Shown here: positions 13,481-28,821 of the stretch, piece after piece
Layout of the letters: each line of letters opens with the position of its first letter
Position numbering within the stretch: position 1 is the first letter of the stretch
Assembly (NCBI GenBank): GCA_040901675.1
Contig: JBBDYJ010000011.1
Span: forward strand, 1 to 64,000
Source: Pirellulales bacterium
Lineage (GTDB): Bacteria; Planctomycetota; Planctomycetia; Pirellulales; JAICIG01
Length of the DNA: 64,000 nucleotides
Direction of reading: 5' to 3'
Notes under the pieces: model-generated
What the model saw: the letters and a program-made list of their open reading frames with translations, nothing else
Told to the model about the DNA's origin: nothing
Databases searched by the model: none
Program-made: the position numbers and the translations under genes

Positions 13481-14110
13481 CTATTCCTCGGGCCGCGCCG
13501 GGCCTGGTTTGGCTCCGGAATTCCGCGGCTCCAGCGCCGGTTCGACGTCGAGCACCATCAGCGCCACATCGACGAGTTTTTTGCTTTTGACGCTGGCCAG
13601 GCTCTGCAGCCGCTGGTAGGCGGCGTGTTCGTCGAGGCCCGCGATTTTCATCAACAGGCCCTTGGCCCGCTCGATCACCTTGCGGTCCTCGAGGGTCTTT
13701 CGCAGCGCGGCCGCTTCCGTCCGGGCGGCATCCAACTCGCGGAAACGGTGCATGGCGACCGTAATCGCCGGCCCCAGGTCGGCATCGCCGATCGGCTTGA
13801 CCAGGTAAGCCATCACGCAGCCTGCCTCGGTCCGGCGAATCGTGGCCGGATCGTGGTAGGCGCTTAACAGCACGACGGGGACGGGCGACTGGCGGCAAAC
13901 CTCGACCGCCGCTTCAATCCCGTCCATGTCGGGCATTTTGATGTCGGTGAGAATGAGATCGGGTTGCAGCGAGCGGCACGAACTGACCAGGTCACGGCCG
14001 TTCGAAACGGCCGCCACGACTTCGTGACCCAACTCCATCAGCGATTCGCTCAGGTAGGCCCGCATGTGGGGTTCGTCGTCGGCCACGGCGATTCGAAGCG
14101 TCTCGCTCAT
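13481..14110 (-). CDS. ANTAR-domain response regulator (AmiR/NasT type)
   Basis: Intact receiver (ADDE, TDIKMPDMDG, KP) plus LEDRKVIERAKGLLM..EHAAYQRL ANTAR motif. Confidence 0.93.
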   Translation of the reverse strand: MSETLRIAVADDEPHMRAYLSESLMELGHEVVAAVSNGRDLVSSCRSLQPDLILTDIKMPDMDGIEAAVEVCRQSPVPVVLLSAYHDPATIRRTEAGCVMAYLVKPIGDADLGPAITVAMHRFRELDAARTEAAALRKTLEDRKVIERAKGLLMKIAGLDEHAAYQRLQSLASVKSKKLVDVALMVLDVEPALEPRNSGAKPGPARPEE

Positions 14111-15223
14111 CTAGGCACTCCGCCGCCAGTGCAGGACGATTTCCGCGCCCCGCCCGCGGCCGGCTCCCAGCGAGATGCGGCCGCCATGCGCCTCCACAAT
14201 CCGCTTGGTAATCGGCATTCCCAACCCGGTTCCATGAGTCTTTGTGGTGTAGAACGGCTCGAAAATCCGCTGCCGCTGCTCGCTGTTGAGACCCGGCCCA
14301 TTGTCGATCAGCGACACGCGCACGGCGGGTGCCTGGTCCAGTTGATCCAACGACCAGATCACCTCCAGCGACACCGGATCGCGGCAGGCCGTCAACGAAT
14401 TCTCCAGGATGTTGCGGAACGCCTGGGCCGCGGCAAAGCGGTCGACCTCGCAACAGGCGTCCAAGTCGCGTCCGACTTCACTCAATCGCACCTGGCGGCC
14501 CTGGCGCACGGGGCCTACCTGCGACCAGGCCTCGTGCAGGATGTCGACCAGGCTGCACGGCTGCCGATTCAGCCTGATCGGGGCCGCGTAGGCTCGCACA
14601 CCATCATACAGGTGATACAGGTCCTGCTGCGCCTCCTGGATGCCGGCCAGCAGTTGTTCGGCTTCGCTCTGGCCCTTGATGCGTTTGGCGAGCATGCTCA
14701 GGCAGGCCTGGCTTCGCTGCAAGGCATTGCGGCTTTCGTGAGCCAGGCCGGCCACCATCTGGCCGATGGCGGCCAGTCGTTCGGACTGCAGCAGCAGTTC
14801 CTGGGCTTCCTTGAGGTTGGTGATGTCCTGCCCGACCAGGAGCAAGCTGTTGCCGCGATCGTGGCCTTCCAATCCGCGGGCGTTGAAGACCATCCAGCGG
14901 GTGCTGCCATGCCGGCATTGAACGGGGCTCTCAAAACCCTCGCCCGGATTGCCGGCACGTGCCAGCTTGATTTTTTCAGCGACCGCCTGCCGATGCTCGG
15001 GGGGCAGAAACAACTCGCAGTAATCCTGTCCCTCGACTTCGCCAGCCGTGTAGCCGGTGAGCGTCTCGGCGAACGGGCTGAAATAGGCGATGTGCCGTCC
15101 TTGGAGGATCAGGATCATGCACTGGGCCGCCTCCACCAGGCTGCGAAATGCCATTTCGCTCCGCGGATCGACCAGAATGGCGCCGGCAGCCGTTTCCACT
15201 TGAGCGACTCCTTTCGTCCCCAT
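14111..15223 (-). CDS. PAS-domain sensor histidine kinase
   Basis: PAS domain; ERLAAIGQMVAGLAHESRNAL H-box; N-box; DNGPG; FEPFYTTK; GTGLGM. Confidence 0.93.
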   Translation of the reverse strand: MGTKGVAQVETAAGAILVDPRSEMAFRSLVEAAQCMILILQGRHIAYFSPFAETLTGYTAGEVEGQDYCELFLPPEHRQAVAEKIKLARAGNPGEGFESPVQCRHGSTRWMVFNARGLEGHDRGNSLLLVGQDITNLKEAQELLLQSERLAAIGQMVAGLAHESRNALQRSQACLSMLAKRIKGQSEAEQLLAGIQEAQQDLYHLYDGVRAYAAPIRLNRQPCSLVDILHEAWSQVGPVRQGRQVRLSEVGRDLDACCEVDRFAAAQAFRNILENSLTACRDPVSLEVIWSLDQLDQAPAVRVSLIDNGPGLNSEQRQRIFEPFYTTKTHGTGLGMPITKRIVEAHGGRISLGAGRGRGAEIVLHWRRSA

Positions 15224-15572
15224 TCATAAGGTCGGCTCAGCGATCAAAGACCATGAAATCCGTGCCGCCAACTTTCAAGAAAAGCTGGTTGATCCTCCGG
15301 CCGATCCCCGATATATAGTTGCGGCGGTTTGTCCATGGCGGGCAGCCCGCCATGCTTGGATAGCGCTTCGTGCGCATGTCGCGCACTCAGGGAACTCGCT
15401 TCCCTTCTTGACTGGCCTGGCGCGCAGCGGCCCTCGTGGGGCCCTTGTCGTATGCTGCAGCGGGTCGGCGTCACCCCCCCTCTGGTGCATCGTCACGGTG
15501 TTTTCGTACCCCGGTGCGTTTCGAAACCGATTCACCGCCCGCGAATGGAATCTGACAGGGGAGTAGAGGAAT

Positions 15573-16241
15573 TTGGCAATGACCCGACCGACAGTGTATC
15601 TCCACGCGAGCGACCCGCTGAGCCGCCGCCACCTGGCCCAGCTCGCCGCGCCCTTGGACGTCATCTCCCTCGACCAAGAGCCATCCGCTCGAATGCCGGC
15701 CGGCCTCCATCCCCCGGGCTGTCTCGTGCTCGACATGTCGCTCGATGCCCCGCGCGGCCTCGCGCTGCAAGCCGACCTGATGGCTCGTGGAGTCGGCCTT
15801 CCGGTGATTGCCATCACGGCGCACGGCGAAGTGGCCACTGCGGTGGCTGCGGCCAAGGCGGGAGCGGTTGCGGTCTTCGACCGGCCGCTGGCGGCCGAGC
15901 GGGTCGCGCAAGCCATCCATCAAGCAATCGAAGTCGACCGTCGCAACCAATGCCAAGCGGGCCAGTCGGCTTCGATCGCGCGGCGCATCGACGGCCTCTC
16001 GGCCCACGAGCGAACGGTGCTGGAACTGGTGGTCGCGGGCAACCCCAACAAGGTCATTGCGGCCAGGCTGGGTTACAGCCTTCGCAGCGTCGAGGCCTGG
16101 CGGTCGAAGGTAATGAAGGTTCTCGGGGCAAGATCCTTGGCCGACCTGGTGCGGTTGTGGCTGGCGGCGCGGGTGCCGGCGCCTCACTGGAACACGCTTC
16201 CGGCAACGGTGACCCATGTTGAGGAGTTGAAAACCGCATGA
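15573..16241 (+). CDS. FixJ-like LuxR response regulator with degenerate receiver
   Basis: GCLVLDM, ITAHGEV; HTH LSAHERTVLELVVAGNPNKVIA..RSKVMKVL. Confidence 0.85.
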   Translation: MAMTRPTVYLHASDPLSRRHLAQLAAPLDVISLDQEPSARMPAGLHPPGCLVLDMSLDAPRGLALQADLMARGVGLPVIAITAHGEVATAVAAAKAGAVAVFDRPLAAERVAQAIHQAIEVDRRNQCQAGQSASIARRIDGLSAHERTVLELVVAGNPNKVIAARLGYSLRSVEAWRSKVMKVLGARSLADLVRLWLAARVPAPHWNTLPATVTHVEELKTA

Positions 16242-16651
16242 CCACACTCGACTGCCGGATCCTGTTGGCTGAGGATTGCGCCGACACCCAGCGGCTGATT
16301 TCGCACATGTTGCGCAAGGCGGGCGCCGAGGTCACCGTGGCCGCCGATGGCCAGGCTGCGGTGCAGTGCGTCGTCGATGCCGACGCGGAAGGCCGGCCCT
16401 TCGACTTGATCCTGATGGATATGCAGATGCCGGTCCTGGACGGTTTCAGCGCCACCAGGCGGCTGCGTCAAGATGGCCATCGGGGACCGATCGTCGCCTT
16501 CACCGCGCTGGCGGCCTCGGGCGACCGCGAAGCGTGCATCGGCGCCGGCTGCGATGAGTACCTCACCAAGCCGGTCGAGCGAGAGAGGCTGCTCGGGGTG
16601 ATCTCGAGCTTTGCGAAAAAAGGGCAGGCCGGTGGAAAGCTGTCGGCCTGA
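16238..16651 (+). CDS. Single-domain response regulator receiver
   Basis: ILLAEDC, FDLILMDMQMPVLDG, YLTKP. Confidence 0.92.
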   Translation: MTTLDCRILLAEDCADTQRLISHMLRKAGAEVTVAADGQAAVQCVVDADAEGRPFDLILMDMQMPVLDGFSATRRLRQDGHRGPIVAFTALAASGDREACIGAGCDEYLTKPVERERLLGVISSFAKKGQAGGKLSA

Positions 16652-16655
16652 GTCC

Positions 16656-17315
16656 GTGAGTGTCGCGCCGCGGGGTGCCAGGGAGATCCGGCTTCTCATC
16701 GCCGACGATCAGCCGCTGGTCCGGACGGGACTGGCCCGCTGGTTCGCGAACACCGAACTGAAGATCGTCGCCCAGGCCGATCGGGTCGAGGACCTGGTGC
16801 GCCTGGCGATCGAACAGGCCGCCGACGTGGCCCTCATCGAAACCCACCTGGGCGGCCGCGACGTTTTACCCTGCCTGGCGGAGATCAGGTGCCGGCGGCC
16901 GGCCACGGCGGTACTGATCTTTTCGGCCTACGACAATTCGGCCGATGCGGCCCGCGCCTTGGATGCCCAGGCCGCGGGCTTCCTGCTCAAGACGGCCGGC
17001 CGCGAGCGGTTGCTCGAAACCATCCGGCTGGTGGCCGGCGGAAGGACCGCCTGGCAAGCCCGGGATGCGCGGCGGTTGCGACGGGCCCTGGCGGCGCCAC
17101 CGACCAACGGCGACGTCGGTTCGGCCCTGACGGCTCGCGAGACCCAAGTGCTGAGTCAACTGGCATTGGGCTTGACCAACCGAGAGATCGCGCAAGTGCT
17201 TGCGATCAGCCCCGAAACCGTCAAGGAACACGTCCAGCGCGTGCTGCGCAAGATCGGCGTCCGCGACCGCACCCAGGCGGCCGTCTGGATGGCCCGGAAG
17301 CGGCGTCTGTCTTGA
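16656..17315 (+). CDS. NarL/LuxR-family response regulator
   Basis: LIADDQPLVRTGL; LTARETQVL..GLTNREIA..TVKEHVQRVLRK. Start uncertain. Confidence 0.9.
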   Translation: MSVAPRGAREIRLLIADDQPLVRTGLARWFANTELKIVAQADRVEDLVRLAIEQAADVALIETHLGGRDVLPCLAEIRCRRPATAVLIFSAYDNSADAARALDAQAAGFLLKTAGRERLLETIRLVAGGRTAWQARDARRLRRALAAPPTNGDVGSALTARETQVLSQLALGLTNREIAQVLAISPETVKEHVQRVLRKIGVRDRTQAAVWMARKRRLS

Positions 17316-17329
17316 AGCAGTATCTGCGC

Positions 17330-17692
17330 TTAGTCCACCATCGGGGGCGGGTCTTCGCCGTATTTCGCCCTGTAGGTGGCGGCGAACTGGTCCTTCAGTT
17401 CGGGCTTGCAGACAAAACACTGCGACTGGGGCCGATCGTGCGACGTGCACCAGTCGCCTTGTTCCTTGAAGTCGGCTACCAGGCTGAAATCGCACTGGGC
17501 GCACACCGATTCAGGAATCCCATGCTCTCCGCACCAGTCGCGGCCCGCATAGTTGTGCAGGCCCTCGTCCGGCTTTGCGGCGGCCTTCGTTCGAGCCGAG
17601 TCGCCCCCCGGATTGTCGTCGGCGCTCGTGCAGCCGCCCATGGCAACCGCCACGGACAACACAACGCAATGGGCCAGTACCGTTCGCTTCAT
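17330..17692 (-). CDS. Small lipoprotein with two DWCxxH..ES.CxxC-type metal-binding repeats
   Basis: Lipobox-like AMGGC; DWCGEHGIPESVCAQC and DWCTSHDRPQSQCFVC; lies downstream of czcA. Confidence 0.8.
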   Translation of the reverse strand: MKRTVLAHCVVLSVAVAMGGCTSADDNPGGDSARTKAAAKPDEGLHNYAGRDWCGEHGIPESVCAQCDFSLVADFKEQGDWCTSHDRPQSQCFVCKPELKDQFAATYRAKYGEDPPPMVD

Positions 17693-17735
17693 GAACTGTT
17701 CTCCTTGCATTTAAACGTTGATCAAGCAGAGTGGG

Positions 17736-20700
17736 TTACACCTCGACTGGTTCGCGCGGCAGCGGATCGGGGCCGGCCGCCCTGGCCCGGCGACGCGCAA
17801 AGGGCGATTCGAACACGACGTAGAGCACGCGCACCACCAACAGCGACATGATCATGGCGCTGGTGACGCCGCCGATCACCACCGTCGCCAGCGGCCGCTG
17901 CACCTCCGCCCCCATGCCGGTGCTGAAGGCCATGGGCAAAAAGCCCAACGCGGCCACCAAAGTCGTCATCAGCACCGGCCGCAGCCGGGTGACCGCCGCT
18001 TCCATGACCGCCTCGTCCAGCCCCCGGCCCCGCGCGCGAAGCTGCCGGATGTAGGAAACCAGGATCATGTCGTCCAGCACCGCCACGCCCGACATGGCGA
18101 TGAAGCCAATGGCCGCCGAAATCGAAAAAGGCATGTCCCGCAGCCAGAGAGCAACCACTCCGCCGACCGCGGCAAAGGGCACCGCCGTGAACACGCGCAG
18201 CGTGTCGAGCATGTTCCCATAGGTCACGTACAACAGGCCCAGCACCAGGGCCAGGGCCAGCGGCACCACGACGAGCAGCCGCTTGCGCGAGCTGATCATG
18301 TGCTCGAACTGGCCTCCCCACTCCAGCCGATACCTGCCGGCAGGCAGTTGCACCTGTTCCGAAATCCGCTGCTGGGCCTCGGCCACGAAGCTGCCGATGT
18401 CGCGGCCTCGCACGTTGGCGGTGACGGTGATTCGCCGCTGTCCCCACTCGCGGGTGATCGTGGCCGGCCCCGAGACGAGCCGGATGGAGGCCAGCCGCGA
18501 AAGAGGGATCCGCTCGCCGCGCGCGGTCATGACCAGCACTTCGCCCAGCGCCGCGGCACTTGAGCCGACGTTGTCGGGCAGCCGCACCACGAGCGGGAAG
18601 CGGAACTGCCCCTCGAAGACCTCCCCCAGCGGCAAGCCGCCCATCGATTCGACCAGTTGCAGCACCGTGTCGGCCGGCACTCCGTAGCGGGCGATTTGTG
18701 CCTGGTTCACTTTTATTTCCAGCACGGGCTGGCCGGTAATCTGCTCGGTACCTACGTCGGCGCTGCCCGCGATGCCCCCTAGCACGCGCTCGATCTCCTG
18801 CGCCTTGGCCACCAGAACGTCGAAATCGTCGCCGAACAGCTTGACCGCCAGGTCGGAACGCACGCCGGAAACCATCTCGTTGAGCCGCATCTCGATAGGC
18901 TGGGCCATGGCCAGCCGTTGGCCGGGCAGGCTGCGCAGCTCTTTCTCGACCAGCTCGGCCAGTTGCGACTGCGTGGAGGCCTTGGTCCACTGGCTGCGGG
19001 GCCGCAGCGTGATGAACAAATCGGTCAGTTCCATGCCCATCGGGTCGGTGGCGACCTCGGCCGTTCCGATGCGGCTCCACACGTGCCGCACTTCGTCGGG
19101 AAAGGCGGCCAGGACCGCTCGTTCCATCTGGGTGTTGTATCGGATCGATTCGGCCAGATCGGTGCCGGCCAGCCGCACCACGTTGATGGCCAGGGCCCCT
19201 TCCGACAGCCGGGGCACGAACTCGCTCCCCAGGTTGGGGGCGATGAAGCCGAAAACCGTCACCACCAGGGCGGCGGCCAGGGCGATCACGGCAAACTTCT
19301 GCCGCATCGCAAACCGCAGCACGGGAGTGTGAATGCGATGGGCCAACCGCATCAGCAGCGGCTGGCGGTGCTCGATTCGCCGCGGCAACAGCAGGCTGGC
19401 CAACACCGGCATCAGCGTGAGCGACAGCACCATCGAGCTGGCCAGCGCCAGAACAACCGTCAGCGCCATGGGGCGAAACAGCTTCCCCTCGATTCCCTCC
19501 AACGTCAGGATCGGCAGATACACGATCATGATGATCAGTTCGCCAAACAGCGTCGGCCGCCGCACCTCGACCGCCGCGTCGCGGACCACTTCCAGTCGGC
19601 TGCGTCCGGCGGCCTGTTCCTGGCCGATGTGCCGCGCGCAGTTCTCGACCATCACCACCGAGCTGTCGACGATCATGCCAAAGTCGATCGCCCCCAGGCT
19701 CAGCAGGCTGGCCGCGATCCCAAAGCGAAGCATCCCCGAAAAGGCAAACAGCATCGACAGCGGGATGGCCAGGGCCACGATCAGCGCGGCGCGGATGTTT
19801 CCCAGGAACAAAAACAGCACGGCCGTGACGAGCAATCCGGCCTCGAACAGGTTGGTGCGCACCGTGCGGATCACGTGGTCTACCAGCTCGGTCCGGTCGT
19901 AAACGGTCGTTATTTCGACGTCGGCGGGCAGGCTGAGCTGGTCCAGCTTGTTTTTGAGGGCCCAGGTCGCCTCGTGGCTGTTCTCGCCCATCAGCATGAA
20001 ACCCAAGCCGAGGACCGCTTCTCCCTTACCGTTGGCGGTGACTGCGCCGCGGCGGACGGCATGGCCGATGGCCACGTCGGCCACGTCGGCCAGGCGGACC
20101 GGCACGCCGTCGTGGGCCGTCACCACGATGTCGCCGATCTGCTCCAGGCTGGTCGTGCGTCCGATGCCGTGCACCAGCAGCATTTCGCCCGACTGGCGGA
20201 CCACCCCGCCGCCCACGTTGCGATTGTTGCCTGAAATCGCCTCCACGACCGCGTCGAACGTCAGACCGTGCTTGGCGAGCCGCAGGGGATCGATGCGGAC
20301 CTGGTATTCTTTCTCGTAGCCTCCCCAACTATTGATTTCGGCCGTGCCCTTCACGGTCCGCAGCACCGGCTTGATCATCCAGTCCTGCACGCTGCGCAGG
20401 TGAGTCAGCTTTGTAATCCGCTCCTCTTCGCTCAACGTGGAGTGGTCATAGCCCCGGCTGGTGAGGATGTAGTGGAACACCTCCCCCAGGCCGGTCGAGA
20501 CGGGACCCAGCATGGGCCTCTCGACGCCCCGCGGCAGTTGCGCCGTGGAAAGACGCTCGTGAATCAGTTGCCGCGCGAAGTAAACGTCGGTCCCGTCTTC
20601 GAAAGTAGCCACTACCTGCGACAATCCGAACTTGGAGATCGAACGCAGCTTGTCCAGGTTCGGCAGCCCGCTGATCACCTGCTCGATGGGAAACGTGATT

Positions 20701-20891
20701 TGCTGCTCGACCTCTTCGGGTCCCAGCGATGGCGCCGTCGTGTTGATCTGCACCTGGATCGGCGTGGTGTCTGGAAAGGCGTCGATGTCGAGCCGCGCCA
20801 GCGACGCCGCTCCCAGCGCCGCCAGGGCGGCGGCCAACAGCACCACCAGCAGCCGGTGCCGCAACGAGACGTCGATCACCCAATTGAGCAC
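17736..20891 (-). CDS. czcA: CusA/CzcA heavy-metal RND efflux permease
   Basis: 1051 aa; IDAFPDTT, GAIDFG.IVDSSVVMVEN, EGKLFRPMA, RLRPVLMT, EVQRPLATVVIGG. Confidence 0.95.
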   Translation of the reverse strand: MLNWVIDVSLRHRLLVVLLAAALAALGAASLARLDIDAFPDTTPIQVQINTTAPSLGPEEVEQQITFPIEQVISGLPNLDKLRSISKFGLSQVVATFEDGTDVYFARQLIHERLSTAQLPRGVERPMLGPVSTGLGEVFHYILTSRGYDHSTLSEEERITKLTHLRSVQDWMIKPVLRTVKGTAEINSWGGYEKEYQVRIDPLRLAKHGLTFDAVVEAISGNNRNVGGGVVRQSGEMLLVHGIGRTTSLEQIGDIVVTAHDGVPVRLADVADVAIGHAVRRGAVTANGKGEAVLGLGFMLMGENSHEATWALKNKLDQLSLPADVEITTVYDRTELVDHVIRTVRTNLFEAGLLVTAVLFLFLGNIRAALIVALAIPLSMLFAFSGMLRFGIAASLLSLGAIDFGMIVDSSVVMVENCARHIGQEQAAGRSRLEVVRDAAVEVRRPTLFGELIIMIVYLPILTLEGIEGKLFRPMALTVVLALASSMVLSLTLMPVLASLLLPRRIEHRQPLLMRLAHRIHTPVLRFAMRQKFAVIALAAALVVTVFGFIAPNLGSEFVPRLSEGALAINVVRLAGTDLAESIRYNTQMERAVLAAFPDEVRHVWSRIGTAEVATDPMGMELTDLFITLRPRSQWTKASTQSQLAELVEKELRSLPGQRLAMAQPIEMRLNEMVSGVRSDLAVKLFGDDFDVLVAKAQEIERVLGGIAGSADVGTEQITGQPVLEIKVNQAQIARYGVPADTVLQLVESMGGLPLGEVFEGQFRFPLVVRLPDNVGSSAAALGEVLVMTARGERIPLSRLASIRLVSGPATITREWGQRRITVTANVRGRDIGSFVAEAQQRISEQVQLPAGRYRLEWGGQFEHMISSRKRLLVVVPLALALVLGLLYVTYGNMLDTLRVFTAVPFAAVGGVVALWLRDMPFSISAAIGFIAMSGVAVLDDMILVSYIRQLRARGRGLDEAVMEAAVTRLRPVLMTTLVAALGFLPMAFSTGMGAEVQRPLATVVIGGVTSAMIMSLLVVRVLYVVFESPFARRRARAAGPDPLPREPVEV

Positions 20892-20931: not shown

Positions 20932-20947
20932 CAGCCCGACCGGGCTG
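20932..20947 (-). promoter_or_regulatory. Putative SECIS hairpin (CAGCCC-GGUC-GGGCUG)
   Basis: Loop starts 24 nt after the in-frame TGA at 20968-20966. Confidence 0.7.
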
Positions 20948-22576
20948 TTACTTGTGACAGTCCGCTCATCCCGCCCCCAGGTTGTTCTTCAGCAGGGCCG
21001 CCCGCAGCACGGCGCTGCCCCGGCCCGCCACCACTTCACCGGGCAGCACGCCGGCCACCAGCTCGGTGAACTGATCGAGCTTGGCGGCCGGGCGGACGGT
21101 GCGGGTGTGGAACACCTTGGGAGCGTCCTTCTTGAAAAAGTTCTTGTCGCGCACGAAAACGACGTGGCACGAGCCGTCCCAGTGGATTGCCTCACTCGGC
21201 ACGGCGATGGCCTGGCTCTCTTCGCGGAGCACGATCTGTCCGCTGCCGTAACTGTGGGCCCGTAAATCGCCGGAGCGATTCTCCAGCGTGGCCCGCACCG
21301 TCACGGTGCGGGTCCTTGGGTCCACGGCCGTGCTGATCCAGGTCACCTGGCCCGCCGCCTCGCGCGTGCCGCCGTCGGGGCGGAATCGTACCTTCTGGCC
21401 CAGGGCGAGATGGCGCGAGTCTTCCTGCCGGGCGTGCAGCGTCAGCCACATCTGGCTCGGATCGGCCAGCACGAACAGTGTCTTGGCCGGCTCGACCACT
21501 TCGCCGGCCACTACTTCGAAATCGACCACCACCGCGTCGAACGGCGCCGTGATCGGTATCAGGTTGGCTGTGGTGGTCTCGGGATTCAGGCCGTCGGTAA
21601 GCTCCTTTGGCAGGCCCAAAAACTGCACCCGCTCGGCCAAGGCTTCATCGGGCAGATCCATGAGCTCGTCGGCATCCACCGGCAGCCCCAGGTTCACCAG
21701 TGCCTGGCGTGCGCCCAGCAGGCTGATCCGCGCCGCGCTCAGCTCGGCCCGGCCCTCGCGAAGCTGCCGCTCGGCCAAGGCCGAAGCCACCGCCTCCAGC
21801 CGATCGAGCGCCTGTTGCTTCAGCCGGGTCTGCACCACGGCCTGCAGCAAGGCCGCCTTGGCCCTGCCCACTTCGGCCGCGTCGATCAGGGCCAGCACGT
21901 CGTGCTGCTTCACTTGCTGGCCGAGCTCGGTTTCGACCCGCCACACCGTTCCGGCCACACGGGGCGCCAGATGAGCGACCCGCGACTGGTCGTAGATCAC
22001 TTCGCCGGCCGCGTCGATCGACTCGGTGATCGGCCGCCGTTGGACCACCTCGACCTGGACGCCCGCCCGCTCCACCGCATCGGCCGAAGCAAATTGCACG
22101 CGGCGGCGATAGAGCTTGCAACGGCTATTGTTCTCGGGGCGCTGGGTCAGCGCCAGGGCCCGGCGCGAGCGCGCCAAGTCGTCGCCGGAAAGCTGGGGCG
22201 GATCGGTCAACTGGGCCACGTCGGGATGACAGAGCGGGCATTGGTGTACTCCGTGCTCGCCGCACCACCCGTAGTCCTTGCCCAGCGGGAGCACGTCCGG
22301 CTGGCACTCCACGCAGCCCGACTCCGGCACGTCGTGCGCGGCGCACCAATCGTCGATGCTGGCGTCGCCGCCGCTCCAAAGCGCCGAGAACTTCGGCACC
22401 GCCCAACCGTTGCGGTGGCCCAGGTACGCCGCGGTGGCCAGGCCGGCCAACACCAGCAGCGTGGGCAGCACGTGGCCCGCCCGGGTGTGCCACGGCAGGG
22501 GTGACCGGCTCTCGGGAATGGCGAGAGTCGATTGGACGGACTGTTTGTCGTCGACCAGTTGATTGGATTCGGACAC
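20948..22576 (-). CDS. czcB: CzcB-like RND periplasmic adaptor, probable selenoprotein ending GAG-U-ADCHK (ends at 20966 if TGA is a stop)
   Basis: Membrane-fusion-protein motifs (APRVAG.V, ITAPFDAVV, VDPRTRTV.VRA); Cys/His-rich N-terminal region; GTG start after AGGAG. Confidence 0.9.
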
Positions 22577-22689: not shown

Positions 22690-23133
22690 TTAGAGCGTCA
22701 GCGACGATATGCGGGCGCGCAGCGCGCGGCCCGCCGGCGGGGGTGGCCAGCAATCGGCGTCGATCGGAGCCCCCACGGTGGCCGAGGCTGTCTCAAGGGC
22801 ATTCGATGCCGGCGGCGCGAGAGAGGTGAGCTGAAGGTGCAGGTCCCGCTCGGTGCCTGCTGAGTTGGCGACGACAACCGGCAATGCTCCCTCGCAGAAG
22901 CAGGTCCGGCCGGGATGACCCGGTTCGGATCGGCACGGTCCATCCGGGTGGTCATCGTCGGGCCGTGCAGTCCCTTCATCCGGTTGCCGCGAGGTGCAGC
23001 AGGGCGCCGGGGCTGATGCCTGGGCGGTATCCCGCCGCTGCACTTCTCCCTGGCAGCCCCCCTCATCGGCGCAGCACGAATAGGGGCATCCGAGAATGCT
23101 CGCGATCACGAGGTGGACAAAAAAGCCGCGCAT
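22690..23133 (-). CDS. Cys-rich hypothetical protein heading the metal-efflux operon
   Basis: Hydrophobic N-terminus, CPYSCC, CC and CFCEGA motifs, PPPPAGR C-terminus. Confidence 0.65.
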   Translation of the reverse strand: MRGFFVHLVIASILGCPYSCCADEGGCQGEVQRRDTAQASAPAPCCTSRQPDEGTARPDDDHPDGPCRSEPGHPGRTCFCEGALPVVVANSAGTERDLHLQLTSLAPPASNALETASATVGAPIDADCWPPPPAGRALRARISSLTL

Positions 23134-23696: not shown

Positions 23697-23960
23697 TTAG
23701 TTTTTCGGTCCATTGACAGCCTCCATCGGAACGAGTGGGCCGATAGCAGTTACTCCAGAACAATGCTCGGCGATCTTATCGACCACCGCAACTTGCTCAG
23801 GTAAGGCATTAGCAATTTGCAGACCAAGGGACTTGGCTTCGTCAATATCAATTACGAACGAATGTGTAGGGTAGTTCTCCACAAGGCTTCGTGCAATGCG
23901 GGCTGCACTTTCCTTGTCGAACCTTCTCCCCAAAAGCCTCTTGGCGTATACGCCGATCAG
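23697..23960 (-). pseudogene. 3' remnant of an SDH/Clp-fold serine peptidase gene
   Basis: YAKRLL..AARIARSLVENYPTHSFVIDIDEAKSLGL; no start codon of its own; lower GC than the flanks. Confidence 0.6.
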
Positions 23961-25399
23961 CCGGACTCCGGCCGCGTACTTCCGACCTGGAGACTCGAGC
24001 GCTCCCGGTGCTCGGCCAGGTTGGCTTGCTCCTGGTCGTAGTCCAGACCCCGGCGAAGAGACCATGTCTGCGGCGAAAGCACCCCGGCCGAAAACTCGAT
24101 CTTGGCCACGTGCGCTTCCTTGAGCACGTCGCGCACGGCCAGCGAGGGACCGGCCGCCTGGATCTGCACGATTTGCCTCACTTCGGCGGGCAGGCGGCCG
24201 GCGCCGATCGCCGCCTGGACCACCCGCCACATCAACTCCAGGTCGTCGGCCACCTGCTGCGCTTGCAGCCGCTCGAACATCTTCACCGCGGGCCCCTCGG
24301 CCACCATGGTCGAAGCATAGGCGGCGTTCGAGGCGTCGCTGGTCAGCATGAACTCGGGCATCACCAGGCGGCTGGCGATGGCCCGCAGCTCGGCCTGCAA
24401 AACGGTCACATAACTGCCCGCGTTGAGGCCGGCCGCCGGGAAGTCGTACTCGATACCGCCGCTGGAGTCGAGGATCGTGCCCGGCGCATAGCGGCGAAAA
24501 TGCGTGGTCTTGCCGGTGCCGGCACGCGTGACGCTCACGTCGGCCTGCCCGGCGGCAAGCTGCTGGACGGCCGTCCTCGAACTCGAATGGTGCTTGCGAA
24601 TGATGGCGATCGCCGACTGGATCTCCGACACCACGCTCATGTTCCGCAGCAGCTTCTCGGCCCGCCTCAGGTTCTTGCGGACCGGATAGAACAACGGCAG
24701 GCCGCGCTTCTGGTTGGCGTCGACGTTTGCCTTGCGATGCTGCACCTCGGCCGGTTCGATCGGCTCGCCATCCACGTAGTAGGCCAGCACCGTCTCCACG
24801 TCGTCCGGCTCGGTTTGAATCCCGAACCGGGCCGCCGGGTCGTGCGCCAAGGCCTGCGGCGTGCTGACCTGGGCCGGTTCGACGAAGCGCACGCGCGTGG
24901 CGCCGCCGACGCCGACGAACAGCCGCAAGAAGACTTCGCCGTCGCGGTCGCGCCGCAAAACGATCTCCTGCTGCCGGCGGTGCCACTGGTTGTCGCGCAC
25001 AAAGCCGTCCACGACCTCCTGGACCCGGGCCAGCAGGGCGCCGGGCGCCTCGCGGCCCTTGCAGCCTACCGCCCGGTACGTGTGCCCGGCGCCGACGATG
25101 TAACTGACGCGGTTCTCATGGCCGTTGATGGCGAACTCGTTGGTCAAGGCGAGCCAGCGGCAGTGATCGCGGATCTCGCCCAGGGTTTGCTCGTTGTCGA
25201 AGGCGGCGGCCGCGGCATATTGGCCGGCATCGCCGCCGTGGGCGCCCAGCGCCAGCCAGCGCGTGCCCTCCGAGTCGAAAAAGGCCTCCCGCGGGTCGAC
25301 GAAATCGTCCCACATTTCGTCGTAGGCTTCGAGCAGCCGCGTCTCGAGCCGCTTGAGCCGGCCATTGCCTCGCCGGTTCGACTTGTTGCGCCTGGTCAT
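23957..25399 (-). CDS. Phage portal protein
   Basis: NEFAINGHENRVSYIVG, RDRDGEVFLR, RFVEP..V, KRGLPLFYPV, DASNAAYAS; adjacent to TerL. Confidence 0.85.
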   Translation of the reverse strand: MTRRNKSNRRGNGRLKRLETRLLEAYDEMWDDFVDPREAFFDSEGTRWLALGAHGGDAGQYAAAAAFDNEQTLGEIRDHCRWLALTNEFAINGHENRVSYIVGAGHTYRAVGCKGREAPGALLARVQEVVDGFVRDNQWHRRQQEIVLRRDRDGEVFLRLFVGVGGATRVRFVEPAQVSTPQALAHDPAARFGIQTEPDDVETVLAYYVDGEPIEPAEVQHRKANVDANQKRGLPLFYPVRKNLRRAEKLLRNMSVVSEIQSAIAIIRKHHSSSRTAVQQLAAGQADVSVTRAGTGKTTHFRRYAPGTILDSSGGIEYDFPAAGLNAGSYVTVLQAELRAIASRLVMPEFMLTSDASNAAYASTMVAEGPAVKMFERLQAQQVADDLELMWRVVQAAIGAGRLPAEVRQIVQIQAAGPSLAVRDVLKEAHVAKIEFSAGVLSPQTWSLRRGLDYDQEQANLAEHRERSSLQVGSTRPESG

Positions 25400-25437
25400 G
25401 GTATGGCTCCTCTGCCTTGCGATTGAAGGTTGCCTTG

Positions 25438-27093
25438 TCATTGAATGCCCAGCCGTCCGCCCAGGCCGTCGTCCGGCTCGGGCGGGCTGAGCATCTCCAG
25501 CGCCAGCCGGATCGCCATTTCGGCGGCGTCCGGACCGTCGTCGTGATCGCCGGCGGGAAAGTCCTTGAGTTGGTTCACGAGCAACTGTGTCGAGGGAGAC
25601 CCGCTCTTGAACCGCAACTGGCGGCTCGACAGGTAGGGCCCCAGCCGCCGAATTCGCACCAGCTTGTTCACCCGGTTGTCCAAGGTCCAGGGGCGGACTC
25701 CCAGCAGCCCTTGCCGCACGAACTCCTGGGCAAACTGTTCGCTCAGCAGGTCCTGGAACTGGTTGGCCTCGATTCCAAACGCATCGGGACGAAAGCGCCG
25801 GAACAGCTCGACCCCGTCGGCGACCATCTGCGGCGTGGCCCGCCGGGCCAGGTCGGCTTCCATGTACAGCGTCCCCTGTTCGTGCACCCCCAGCAGCACG
25901 TAGGCCGAGAAATCACCGCGGCGGGCGTCGGCCCCCTTGCTCGGATCCAGCGCCATCGTCTTCACCCGCAGCCGGCCGGGCCACTCCTCGAACCAGATCC
26001 GCGCGTCGAAGTACGAATCGGGCCACTCGCACGACTCCGGGTTGATCGGCGAGCCTTGCTTCTCGCGCTCGAAAGCGGTCCGGCCGCTCTCCACCCGCAT
26101 CCGCATCAATGTGTACAGGTCTTCTTCGTCCGGCCACAGCAGGATCGCGCCCTCGTCCATCGCCGAGCGGTGCTCGAGGTAAAAGTGCTGGGCGGCCTGC
26201 TGGTAGTCCGGGTTGTCGCGGTCGGTGTACACAGCTTCCCACTCCTCCCACAGCGGCATGTTGCGAGGCCAGTGTTCGATGGCCCGAAAAACCTTGGAGT
26301 TCCAGCCCGGTGTGCGGTGCAGCTCCATGGCCAACGCATCGCGGTGCAGCGCGGTGGCCAGGTTCAGCACGTTGGTCTTCTTCGTGCCCGCCTTGAGCAG
26401 CGTGCCATGAAACCAGCGCCGCGAGCTCTCGCGCCCGGCCGCCGACTCGATGTGGCGATCGTTTTGCAGGTCGTCGCAGATGATCAGCGTCGGCCGGTTC
26501 GCCCGCCGCCGCCGTCCCCGGATCCGCTGCCCCGTGCCGAACGCGTCGATGGCCACTCCGTTGGCCAGCGCGATCGAGTGCTCCCGCCAGACCGGCCCCC
26601 GCCCGTAGGCGGCCGCGTAGGCCTCGGCCAGCCGCTCGTTGTCGACCAGCTCCGCCTTGATGTTCTCCAGGTGGCTCGAAGCCTGGTGCTTGGTGTCGGA
26701 AACGATCCAGATATAAGGTTCCCAGGCCTCGACCGCGGCCCGCAACGGATAAGCCAGCGTGCCGATCGTCGATTTGGCCCCGCCCCGCGGGCCGATGGCG
26801 TTCAGCTTGTTCCCCCGCCGCAGGTGCAGCCCTTCGAGCTCTCGCTCCAGCCACTGGTGCATGGCCGAAGCGGGACGCGTGAAGTGCTCGGGCAGGTAGG
26901 CGCGGCCCCAAGCCAACAGGCCCGCCTCGCGCCACGGCCGGCTGCCGAGGTCCCGCATTTGCTTGATTCGTTCGATCAGTTCGACTTGCGTCTGCCGCGC
27001 CACGGACCATGGGAGTTGCTCGTGCATCGACTCCAGCAGGTATTTTTCGCGGTCCTCCCGTTCTCGGTCGCGGCCGCCGCCCTCACTCGCCAT
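25438..27093 (-). CDS. Phage terminase large subunit
   Basis: Walker A PRGGAKST, Walker B LIICDDLQ, nuclease motifs ALDPS..DFSA and HDDGPDA. Confidence 0.92.
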   Translation of the reverse strand: MASEGGGRDREREDREKYLLESMHEQLPWSVARQTQVELIERIKQMRDLGSRPWREAGLLAWGRAYLPEHFTRPASAMHQWLERELEGLHLRRGNKLNAIGPRGGAKSTIGTLAYPLRAAVEAWEPYIWIVSDTKHQASSHLENIKAELVDNERLAEAYAAAYGRGPVWREHSIALANGVAIDAFGTGQRIRGRRRRANRPTLIICDDLQNDRHIESAAGRESSRRWFHGTLLKAGTKKTNVLNLATALHRDALAMELHRTPGWNSKVFRAIEHWPRNMPLWEEWEAVYTDRDNPDYQQAAQHFYLEHRSAMDEGAILLWPDEEDLYTLMRMRVESGRTAFEREKQGSPINPESCEWPDSYFDARIWFEEWPGRLRVKTMALDPSKGADARRGDFSAYVLLGVHEQGTLYMEADLARRATPQMVADGVELFRRFRPDAFGIEANQFQDLLSEQFAQEFVRQGLLGVRPWTLDNRVNKLVRIRRLGPYLSSRQLRFKSGSPSTQLLVNQLKDFPAGDHDDGPDAAEMAIRLALEMLSPPEPDDGLGGRLGIQ

Positions 27094-27535
27094 GGTTGAG
27101 CGGCTGAAAATTCTTCACGAGCGTGTCAACCCGCTGGAGGATCTTGTCGCAGACGAGCGTATCGGGCACTTCGGAAACGATGACCTCGGCATACTGTTTG
27201 AGCAGGTGCGAGACCTGTTCCGCGGTCACCGTGCCCGGACCTCGCCGCGCGTACCGCTCGGGATAAAGCCGCTCGAGCACCCAAGCGCTCGCCCGCCAGC
27301 ATTTCTTGCTTGCCGTTTCGATGTTCTGGATGTGAATGGCCTCCGGCTTCGACTCGGCCCGCCGGAGACAATCGTGGAAGGCCGCGTCCTGGTTGGCGGC
27401 GCGGCGAATCGCGTCGACCGAGCAGCCCGCCTGCCTGGCGGCGGTGCGGCGGCTGGCGCCCATGGCTACCAGCTCACAGATCTTCTCCTGGCAGGCGCCG
27501 TCCAGTTCCATATCGCCGTTTCGCTCGTTGTTCAT
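27083..27535 (-). CDS. Terminase small subunit-like HTH protein
   Basis: HTH GASRRTAARQAGCS; WRASAWVLERLYPERY; overlaps the TerL start; ATGA-coupled to the upstream gene. Confidence 0.7.
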   Translation of the reverse strand: MNNERNGDMELDGACQEKICELVAMGASRRTAARQAGCSVDAIRRAANQDAAFHDCLRRAESKPEAIHIQNIETASKKCWRASAWVLERLYPERYARRGPGTVTAEQVSHLLKQYAEVIVSEVPDTLVCDKILQRVDTLVKNFQPLNHGE

Positions 27536-28821
27536 GGTTTTTGCCTGTTGGATTGAGTGGTTGAAATCCGGCCGGGGGGCAACGTGCCTTCCGCGCCCTC
27601 TCCGGCTGGCCCCAAGTATTCGAAGCTGGTCACCGAGCGGCCGGTCGATCCCGTGTAGCGGCTGGTAAACCCGCACTTGTGCGAACCATGCTTCATGACC
27701 CGCGCCAGTTGCCAGCGGGCCGACCGGCTGCAGTGCGAGAGCATCGCCGGGTGGCTGGTCGTCAATCGCAGCCGGTCTCTCTGCTGGCGGTGCAGGTCGC
27801 CCACCGCCTCGGCCAGCCGCGTGCCGATGCCGATCCCCTGGTAGTCTGGCAGCGTTACCAACCGGCTGATCCTCCAGATGCCCCGGCGGCCCAAGAGCGG
27901 AAGCGTCGCGCAAAAGGCCACAGGCGTGTCCGACCAGCATGCCAGGAAGCAGCGGCTGCCGAAGTTCAACGAGCCGCTCAAATAGTGATGACGCGCAAAC
28001 AGTCGCCAAGCGCACTGCCGGCAGCGAAACACCGATAATTCGATGGCGGGCCGCCGAAGCTGCCTCCAATGGGTCGTCCCTGGTCCCGTGTCGACGATCC
28101 AATCGGGCTCGAGCCATTCGGCTACGTCGTAGTGGCAGGTGATGGCCACGAACCGGCAGTGGATGCCGCCGCCGCGCAATGCCTTGACCAGCGCCGCCGA
28201 AGCAATGCGCGCCGCCGTGCGATCGACCGCGCTGGTGAATTCGTCGAAAGCGACCAGAGGCAAGCGTGCCAGCGATCGGGTGCGGCCCGCCGCCATGGTC
28301 TGGGCACCGCCTTTCCGCCGCTTGCCGCCGGCGGGCTCGCGCGCGGCAATCATCGCCGCGGCCAGGGCACGGGCCAGGTCGCAGCGGAAGCGCTCGCCGC
28401 CGCTGAGCACGTGGTGCGGCTTGAGCCACGAGGGCGGCGCCCCGAAACCGACCGCCGTGAACACCTGCACGATTTCCTCGACTCGCATTTCTCCCAGGCA
28501 GTCCAGCACGGCCCGATCGGCCGGCCACGACACGGCGCCGGCCAGATCGCGGCCAAATGCCCGCCGGGCAAGCGACGTTTTGCCGCTGCCCGACGGGCCC
28601 ACCACCAGGCCGATTCGCCACTCGGCCTTCCGGTCCGGAAACTCGGCCGCAAAGGTCTCCCGCAGCGTGCTGGCCGGCGGCAGGTCGAACATCCGTGCCA
28701 CCTGCCGCACGCGGTCCGAGTCGTGCAACCGGCAACGCAGTACCGCCCTGACATTGCGCGTGCTGGAAATCGGCCGTGGTTCGCCGGCAGGCGCCGGCGT
28801 CTCGCTGCTCGCCATGTTCAT
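27532..28821 (-). CDS. ABC-type ATPase fused to a GNAT (Mom-like) acetyltransferase
   Basis: GPSGSGKT, LSGGE, VAFDEF, TCH; then FARHHYL and SRLVTLPDYQGIGIG. No TM domain. Confidence 0.85.
   Translation of the reverse strand: MNMASSETPAPAGEPRPISSTRNVRAVLRCRLHDSDRVRQVARMFDLPPASTLRETFAAEFPDRKAEWRIGLVVGPSGSGKTSLARRAFGRDLAGAVSWPADRAVLDCLGEMRVEEIVQVFTAVGFGAPPSWLKPHHVLSGGERFRCDLARALAAAMIAAREPAGGKRRKGGAQTMAAGRTRSLARLPLVAFDEFTSAVDRTAARIASAALVKALRGGGIHCRFVAITCHYDVAEWLEPDWIVDTGPGTTHWRQLRRPAIELSVFRCRQCAWRLFARHHYLSGSLNFGSRCFLACWSDTPVAFCATLPLLGRRGIWRISRLVTLPDYQGIGIGTRLAEAVGDLHRQQRDRLRLTTSHPAMLSHCSRSARWQLARVMKHGSHKCGFTSRYTGSTGRSVTSFEYLGPAGEGAEGTLPPGRISTTQSNRQKP

Follow-up and report, generated by a model that had tools for sequence, protein, structure and literature searches.

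Results

A heavy-metal efflux operon with an in-frame UGA in its adaptor gene

The window, by which we mean the whole stretch of 64,000 nt that was analysed, carries on its minus strand an operon for an RND periplasmic adaptor and a heavy-metal RND transporter (Table 1). We placed the adaptor start at GTG 22576, where the 536-aa database protein and its homologues begin; the longest open frame runs from 22753. The protein matches the RND adaptor model TIGR01730 (101.1 bits, cut-off 94.9), has an adaptor fold and adjoins an RND gene. It scores 94.3 bits on the strict CzcB/NccB model TIGR00999, for which the cut-off is 319.3, and judged from its sequence the right label is 'CzcB-like' (precomputed CzcB domains PF25973 and PF25975). 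Residues C78, H81, C88, C91, C105, H108, C113, C153 and C470 are invariant in 117/117 aligned proteins. No Pfam family was found for the adaptor's Cys/His module, and modules resembling W-C-x2-H...C-x2-C also occur in Myxococcota adaptor clusters.

Table 1 Features of the adaptor locus (window coordinates) and other predicted selenoprotein genes of the source genome, G000 (contig coordinates)
Feature	Position	Strand	Basis or remark
RND periplasmic adaptor gene (CzcB/ZneB-like)	20948..22576	-	542 aa with predicted Sec537; GTG start 22576
In-frame UGA, read as selenocysteine (residue 537)	20966..20968	-	TGA or TGC/TGT column and Sec machinery
Tail codons A-D-C-H-K and true stop TAA (20950-20948)	20948..20965	-	
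Candidate SECIS hairpin CAGCCC-GGUC-GGGCUG	20932..20947	-	intergenic, directly behind TAA; covariation and SECIS constraints
Putative N-terminal membrane-anchor helix (residues 29-55)	22412..22492	-	AlphaFold helix, hydrophobic; anchor role by analogy
Two W-C-x2-H-x(4-6)-C-x2-(C) repeats (residues 76-118), periplasmic Cys/His module	22223..22351	-	
CusA/CzcA-family heavy-metal RND transporter, CzcA/ZneA-like	17736..20891	-	TIGR00914, 1187 bits against a cut-off of 701
Small lipoprotein-like ORF, two W-C-x2-H...C-x2-C repeats as in adaptor	17330..17710	-	
Upstream Cys-rich, probably exported small ORF	22690..23133	-	no Pfam hit
Formate dehydrogenase, AhpD-like, deiodinase-like and ArsC-like selenoproteins	G000 C14:-63219, C30:-67469, C37:+67589, C13:+35411		
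Three peroxiredoxin-like selenoproteins	G000 C34:-51006/-52370/-54096		
Thioredoxin-like and HEAT-peroxiredoxin selenoproteins	G000 C41:-113650, C38:+69644		

A czcA-like gene comes next after the adaptor in all 93 loci with enough DNA; in the window its GTG start lies 41 nt past the end region of a hairpin described below. The nearest solved relative of the pump is ZneA, and E137, D616, D624 and E672 align with ZneA acids that we take to be site residues; the CusA Met triad, numbered as we presume it to be, is absent, with N570, L622 and E672 at those positions. The TM4 signature DFG..D......EN, LGAIDFGMIVDSSVVMVEN in the window, is found in all 68 motif matches in the loci as well. This motif predicts the substrate class of HME-RND pumps in the available text of PMC7060636, and from the pump motifs we guess a divalent-cation transporter of the CzcA/ZneA type. 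No outer-membrane factor gene (OEP match) was found on contig C11; OEP genes are present on other contigs. The small Cys/His lipoprotein ORF follows downstream in 25 of the 28 loci with enough DNA, its relatives forming planctomycete clusters without a Pfam family, and Cys-rich ORFs loosely similar to the upstream one were seen by eye in several TGA loci. Just upstream of the operon, on the same strand, lie genes that we take to be phage-like (23957-28735), among them portal-like (23957-25441) and terminase large subunit-like (25438-27093) genes. Further downstream (13481-17315), a cluster was recognised by eye that comprises a PAS histidine kinase and response regulators, one of them ANTAR-like (13481-14110).

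The initial annotation had placed a TGA codon, then GCG GAC TGT CAC AAG TAA, after the residues KNNLGAG of the adaptor. Read on the minus strand the letters are the same: AAC CTG GGG GCG GGA TGA (20968-20966) GCG GAC TGT CAC AAG TAA, which would give LKNNLGAG-U-A-D-C-H-K-stop. The TGA region is also contained in assembled-contig records of three other studies, and none of the differences listed, 40 of 80, falls in it. In the AlphaFold model of the adaptor (mean pLDDT 90.8, pTM 0.78) the putative anchor helix, the Cys/His module and the domains typical of adaptors can be recognised, and the last helix spans residues 521-535. The tail residues 536-542 have pLDDT below 50, with 32 of 117 aligned rows reaching the tail, and because of this low confidence the model gives no geometry for a tail site.

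The aligned codon is TGA or Cys and never a plain stop

DNA of 132 loci was aligned at the C-terminus, giving 125 distinct loci. From the smaller set used in a looser hairpin test (see below), six loci were left out for lacking the motif: L030 (apparently frameshifted), L166 (cut), L130 (ending SLGR-stop), L064 (a distant paralogue) and the variants L058 and L159; one further locus was too short and two were misplaced (L062, L063). The in-frame UGA aligns with a Cys that is conserved in homologues, as the initial annotation had anticipated for the C-termini of this family: the codon is TGA in 48 of the distinct loci, TGC in 54, TGT in 21 (TGY in 75) and GAG in 2, and TAA or TAG in 0/125. The ratio 48:75 should not be taken as a frequency, since 18 of the TGA loci (L071, L085, L170-L185) had been chosen for their TGA. 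Unselected scans gave the same picture of the column. A pattern scan of class genomes, able to reveal TAA and not TAG, returned 17 TGA and 61 TGY among 78 matches in 70/401 genomes, and a phylum scan returned 12 TGA, 36 TGY and 3 putative TAY, with no TAA or TAG, among 51 matches in 47/401 genomes (4 control hits).

The true stops behind the 48 TGA tails are TAA in 29, TAG in 13 and TGA in 6. Because these are mixed, and TGA is the stop of 352 of 747 long ORFs in G000, TGA in 48/48 cases at the column does not reflect a stop-codon habit. The available text of the preprint by Haft and Gwadz asks of a selenoprotein family that truncated forms end in TGA only, that there be at least 10 examples and that homology continue past the UGA; here all 48 column stops are TGA, and Cys is kept in 44 of the 48 tails. 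The best 120 database proteins listed include, besides the window's own, 119 homologues: 85 have LG[AED]G as their very last residues, in 31 a Cys follows, and the remaining 3 finish with LGE[A/C/S]. LG[AE]G is also where the NCBI entries MCI0457089.1, HJT75781.1 and HWG46228.1 stop, and these are named simply as adaptors. More distant paralogues (L062-L064, about 40% identity) end without any Cys tail, and alignments of ZneB and CusB to the adaptor stop at residue 530-532, so that the tail is dispensable for adaptors in general.

The tail itself is short, 4-7 aa in TGA loci and 3-11 aa in Cys loci. After the U, the next Cys comes at +2 in 31 of the 48 TGA tails (UxC), at +3 in 13 (UxxC), and is absent in 4; tails without it include UADDE and UADHH, and in other classes U-A-D (the shortest) and UCP.. 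forms are found. The tail description 'UxxC(H)' in the initial annotation thus holds for the window gene and fails as a family motif: judged from the aligned sequences, the invariant element is a single U/C right after LG[AE]G. Nor does the tail resemble a thioredoxin-like UxxC redox site, as the spacing is variable and the tail follows the last helix of the adaptor fold. The varying distance from U to Cys, and the existence of tails without a second Cys, favour a ligand over a fixed redox pair.

A covarying hairpin accompanies the TGA

Directly behind the true stop is a hairpin made of CAGCCC (20947-20942), the loop GGUC (20941-20938) and GGGCUG (20937-20932); its perfect pairing and the 24 nt from UGA to loop reproduce what had been annotated initially. 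The bacterial SECIS model, in the available text of PMC13188914, asks for a loop of 3-9 nt with G in the first two loop positions, a stem of 4-16 bp, a distance of 16-37 nt from the UGA and an energy of at most -7.5 kcal/mol. The adaptor hairpin has a 4-nt GGUC loop, 6 bp, 24 nt and -11.2 kcal/mol. That 31-nt fold has z -2.05, with 13/200 shuffles equally good, and longer stretches around it give z between -1.3 and +0.6; with so slight an excess of stability over shuffled sequences, the single locus proves nothing alone. There is no U-tract after it on the coding strand and the terminator scan flagged it on the opposite strand only, in keeping with the earlier view that it is unlikely to be a terminator. 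An Rfam search with the hairpin gave nothing near the gathering score. G000 contains 65 GGTC-loop hairpins with stems of at least 6 pairs, 7 of them with a TGA 17-27 nt upstream, and among those 7 only the adaptor hairpin stands at the end of a long frame, of 608 codons against 2-46 for the rest.

The comparison across homologues decides the matter, because the same hairpin follows TGA and not Cys codons. A GGUC loop on a stem of at least 5 pairs, 20-24 nt past the UGA, is present in 37/48 TGA loci against 1/75 Cys loci, and the CGGUCG core in 39/48 against 1/75; the remaining nine TGA loci have stems with variant loops (GUU, AGUUC, GUG), judged by eye. A looser hairpin test found 31/33 TGA against 14/72 TGY loci. 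At stem positions 3-6 of 30 distinct stems, 97.5% of positions are paired, compared with 62.9 ± 2.9% when the 3' letters are shuffled (0/2000 as high) and 20-35% when the same positions are slid. Each stem position shows four or five pair types, pointing to compensatory changes among loci that, being kin, are not independent. The stem begins no more than 3 nt from the tail stop in 39/39 loci; the SECIS is therefore intergenic, and the space from UGA to SECIS leaves room for a tail of 4-7 aa.

Among Cys loci the core occurs only at L187. In its genome, G677, this locus has a close TGA paralogue (L185), and the sequences are best explained by Sec having recently given way to Cys, with the hairpin left as a relic. 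Sec and Cys copies of the adaptor occur together in G677 (L185 on C1, L187 on C58) and in G690. We also tried a loose TGA+GGTCG DNA pattern on 401 phylum genomes and set it aside as mostly noise, the only adaptors returned being L071, L085 and the window locus.

Selenocysteine machinery and the exchange of Sec and Cys

The initial annotation had made the reading depend on selB and selC. Both are present in G000, which encodes SelA, SelB, SelD and a 97-nt tRNA-Sec (selC, UCA anticodon), all above cut-offs, and no other UCA-anticodon tRNA was found among its 63 tRNAs. The SelD of G000 (C41:142023, L019) is the Cys form, C-x-G-C-G-G-K, and its open frame of 775 codons suggests a fusion with an N-terminal domain.

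Among 80 genomes with the adaptor gene, selA or selB is present in 21/21 TGA genomes (selB in 19; selA in 19, including one copy cut at a contig end). At the thresholds used, 29/59 Cys-only genomes lack both genes and 30/59 have either, with selB in 19/59. The association of Sec genes with TGA has a Fisher P of about 1e-5, a value that ignores kinship and is overstated because the genomes are kin. G356 and G667, which have no selB match, have tRNA-Sec. Within family f31, selA and selB occur in 4/26 genomes, and both TGA genomes are among those four. Both selB and tRNA-Sec are present in each of ten further TGA genomes, which belong to other classes; outside Planctomycetia selB does not discriminate, as 23/29 Cys-only genomes also have it. 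A quick tree of 116 loci, built from the last 330 residues before the codon, implies at least 11 U/C changes, where shuffled labels give 36; 5 of the changes are required by branches with good support. The tree is unrooted, so the direction of change is not given.

The adaptor gene shares its type of hairpin with other genes of G000. In the formate dehydrogenase gene the UGA is followed by the near-identical GUGCCC-GGUCU-GGGCAC, and similar hairpins, at 17-23 nt, occur in the deiodinase, AhpD-like, ArsC-like and peroxiredoxin-like genes. The idea that the adaptor is the sole selenoprotein of G000 was rejected, as at least 9 other genes of known families or folds combine a UGA with a hairpin (Table 1).

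Further candidates were noticed in passing. Exported FG-GAP-repeat proteins of about 360-440 aa, encoded in G000 at C14:+56102 (L193), C10:+437748 (L194) and on C30 (L243), contain a TGA in frame just before a Cys codon (U-C), with a CCAC/CCGC-AGUU-GUGG hairpin 19-20 nt past the TGA; the aligned position holds TGA in 17/19 loci, the relatives L228-L246 included. These proteins are absent from the 119-family table considered below and have no ASPIC-UnbV Pfam hit; Table S9 of PMC4807772 includes an FG-GAP/ASPIC-UnbV candidate. At C14:-34088 (L197) an exported protein of no Pfam or NCBIfam family has C-U (..LERC-TGA-GY..) with a hairpin about 18 nt on, and is a candidate selenoprotein.

Comparison with known systems

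By profile and by fold the nearest solved protein is ZneB of Cupriavidus metallidurans ZneCAB (PDB 3LNN), which has the same four-domain adaptor fold (Foldseek E 2.4e-22; Z 20.0, rmsd 14.8, 328 aligned, model residues 157-530) and itself binds Zn2+ (PMC4446572, available text). Unlike ZneB and CzcB, the present family adds an N-terminal Cys/His module and, past the aligned range, a C-terminal U/C tail; its operon, in contrast to theirs, has no outer-membrane factor gene, and its TIGR00999 score is under the cut-off. Adaptors of metal pumps (ZneB, CusB, SilB) bind metal, which they then hand on to the pump, according to those parts of PMC4446572 and PMC8277102 that were available, and CusB and SilB resemble the present case in having terminal extensions that, in the same part of PMC4446572, bind and relay metal. 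Their extensions, however, serve monovalent ions by means of Met clusters or a CusF-like domain, whereas here there is a U/C peptide of 4-7 residues.

Sec in place of Cys is likewise predicted in metal transport for the SO_0444 Cu/Zn efflux protein (USC), a MerT-like protein, a P-type ATPase (UxxC) and SaoB/SaoP/SaoX, and a ligand role has been proposed there; SO_0444 and the MerT-like protein are named as earlier selenoprotein transporters in the available text of Haft and Gwadz. These transporters have unrelated folds and none is an RND component. SaoC and DUF466/KCU-star also carry Sec at or beside the C-terminus, and were missed by annotation because the SECIS lies outside the coding region. 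They are small stand-alone proteins with a CU end, whereas in the 540-aa exported adaptor the U leads the tail, with 2-6 residues after it.

No RND component stands among the 119 prokaryotic selenoprotein families in Table 1 of a 2026 review, and 'RND', 'adaptor' and 'Planctomyc' are absent from the available part of its text. Searches by terms of the accessible portions of BSepDB (apart from its Table S2), deep-Sep and SelCysML found no RND adaptor, and none appears in Table S9 of the planctomycete paper PMC4807772. No NCBIfam selenoprotein model of June 2026 matches the adaptor, and no literature report of a Sec-tailed RND adaptor was found.

Discussion

The UGA at the end of the adaptor gene is almost certainly read as selenocysteine, to judge from the sequence comparisons. 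The Sec-containing RND adaptor proposed in the initial annotation is borne out by the TGA/Cys column, by the TGA-linked covarying hairpin and by Sec genes in every TGA genome tested. It is very improbable that the TGA is instead a true stop, with a vestigial tail and an ordinary intergenic hairpin serving as RNA stabiliser or antisense terminator. TGA is indeed the commonest stop in G000, the lone hairpin is weakly significant and terminator-like on the opposite strand, and databases end the protein there; a true stop would nevertheless leave unexplained the lack of TAA and TAG at the column, the Cys of most tails, the tie of the hairpin to TGA at 20-24 nt with its covariation, and the Sec genes. 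A reading of the UGA as Cys or Trp, through a variant code or a special tRNA, would suit the homologous residue, which is Cys, and has a probability close to nil, given that TGA ends so many long ORFs, that the sole UCA tRNA is the tRNA-Sec and that Trp never occurs at the column.

For the tail, its context suggests a role as metal ligand, which we regard as rather probable overall and as slightly more so once recoding is granted. In the mechanism that we propose, SelB bound to the GGUC hairpin behind the true stop would insert Sec at the UGA, and a short flexible tail would leave the last helix of the membrane-proximal domain on the periplasmic side. The single soft donor of the tail would be Sec where the genome uses Sec and Cys in all other genomes, and a Cys, His or acid 2-4 positions on would often assist. 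The tail would most likely bind a thiophilic ion (Zn, Cd, possibly Hg or Pb) in the periplasm, and metal may be handed between the Cys/His module of the adaptor and the pump, by analogy with the sites of CusB, SilB and ZneB. Sec would have the advantage over Cys that a selenolate remains ionised and has a higher affinity for soft metals than a thiolate; it counts against the proposed mechanism that many Sec-capable genomes, the 30 of 59 above, use Cys. We consider this explanation as a whole, a Sec adaptor of a CzcA/ZneA-type divalent-metal RND pump with the tail as ligand of a thiophilic ion, moderately likely.

Sec might also be inserted for redox chemistry, as a selenylsulfide with the tail Cys or with C153 or C470, keeping the Cys/His module reduced in an oxidising periplasm or switching the conformation of the adaptor. 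Most selenoproteins are redox proteins, as the available text of the 2026 review has it, G000 has several exported thiol-redox selenoproteins, and in the topology of the model the invariant C153 and C470 would flank the membrane-proximal domain where the tail emerges. We still find a redox tail rather unlikely, since there is no fixed UxxC, tails such as U-A-D, UADDE and UADHH have no second Cys, no thioredoxin fold is present, and tail ends rich in His, Asp and Glu suit metal binding. Less probable again is a selenium-dependent switch, in which partial recoding of the UGA would let adaptors with and without the tail share a hexamer, or the behaviour of ribosomes at the UGA and SECIS would tune translation of the downstream czcA, so that pump activity follows selenium supply. 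Recoding of E. coli fdhF is 30-40% efficient and selenium-dependent (PMC4513850, available text), on which basis mixed adaptors would be expected here. Termination would cost 6 residues only, and the short adaptor is therefore likely folded; moreover, the hairpin lies between two genes, and the gap to czcA has a median of 87.5 nt in TGA loci (n=28) against 41 nt in Cys loci (n=65). The longer gap is, however, simply the room that the SECIS needs, and because U and C have interchanged at least 5-11 times without other change to the operon, it is the residue rather than a switch that seems to be kept.

Building on the metal-ligand reading, one can imagine that planctomycetes have a selenium-armed pump spanning the envelope, an idea that we hold to be doubtful: six adaptor tails would ring the RND entrance, and their selenolates would strip Cd, Hg or Zn from the Cys/His relay in the periplasm. 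Selenium supply could set the tail number, since a stop at the UGA would leave a folded, tail-less adaptor. If this were true, the number of tails per ring would bear on the choice of metals by the pump or on its activity.

On the sequence evidence, the Sec-tailed RND adaptor is a new selenoprotein family within known kinds, namely Sec recoding and heavy-metal RND adaptors. It is a widespread planctomycete family, and brings Sec to tripartite efflux adaptors, which have no Sec member in the 2026 inventory of 119 families. As gene callers cut the last residues, most of its closest database entries (the 85 of 119 best listed) probably miss the functional end of the protein. The SECIS, lying wholly outside the reading frame and therefore free of coding constraint, offers a covarying bacterial SECIS model for planctomycetes. 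Finally, a tail of 4-7 residues in which U and C have been swapped several times, in operons otherwise unchanged, would be a natural test of Sec against Cys as a non-catalytic metal ligand.
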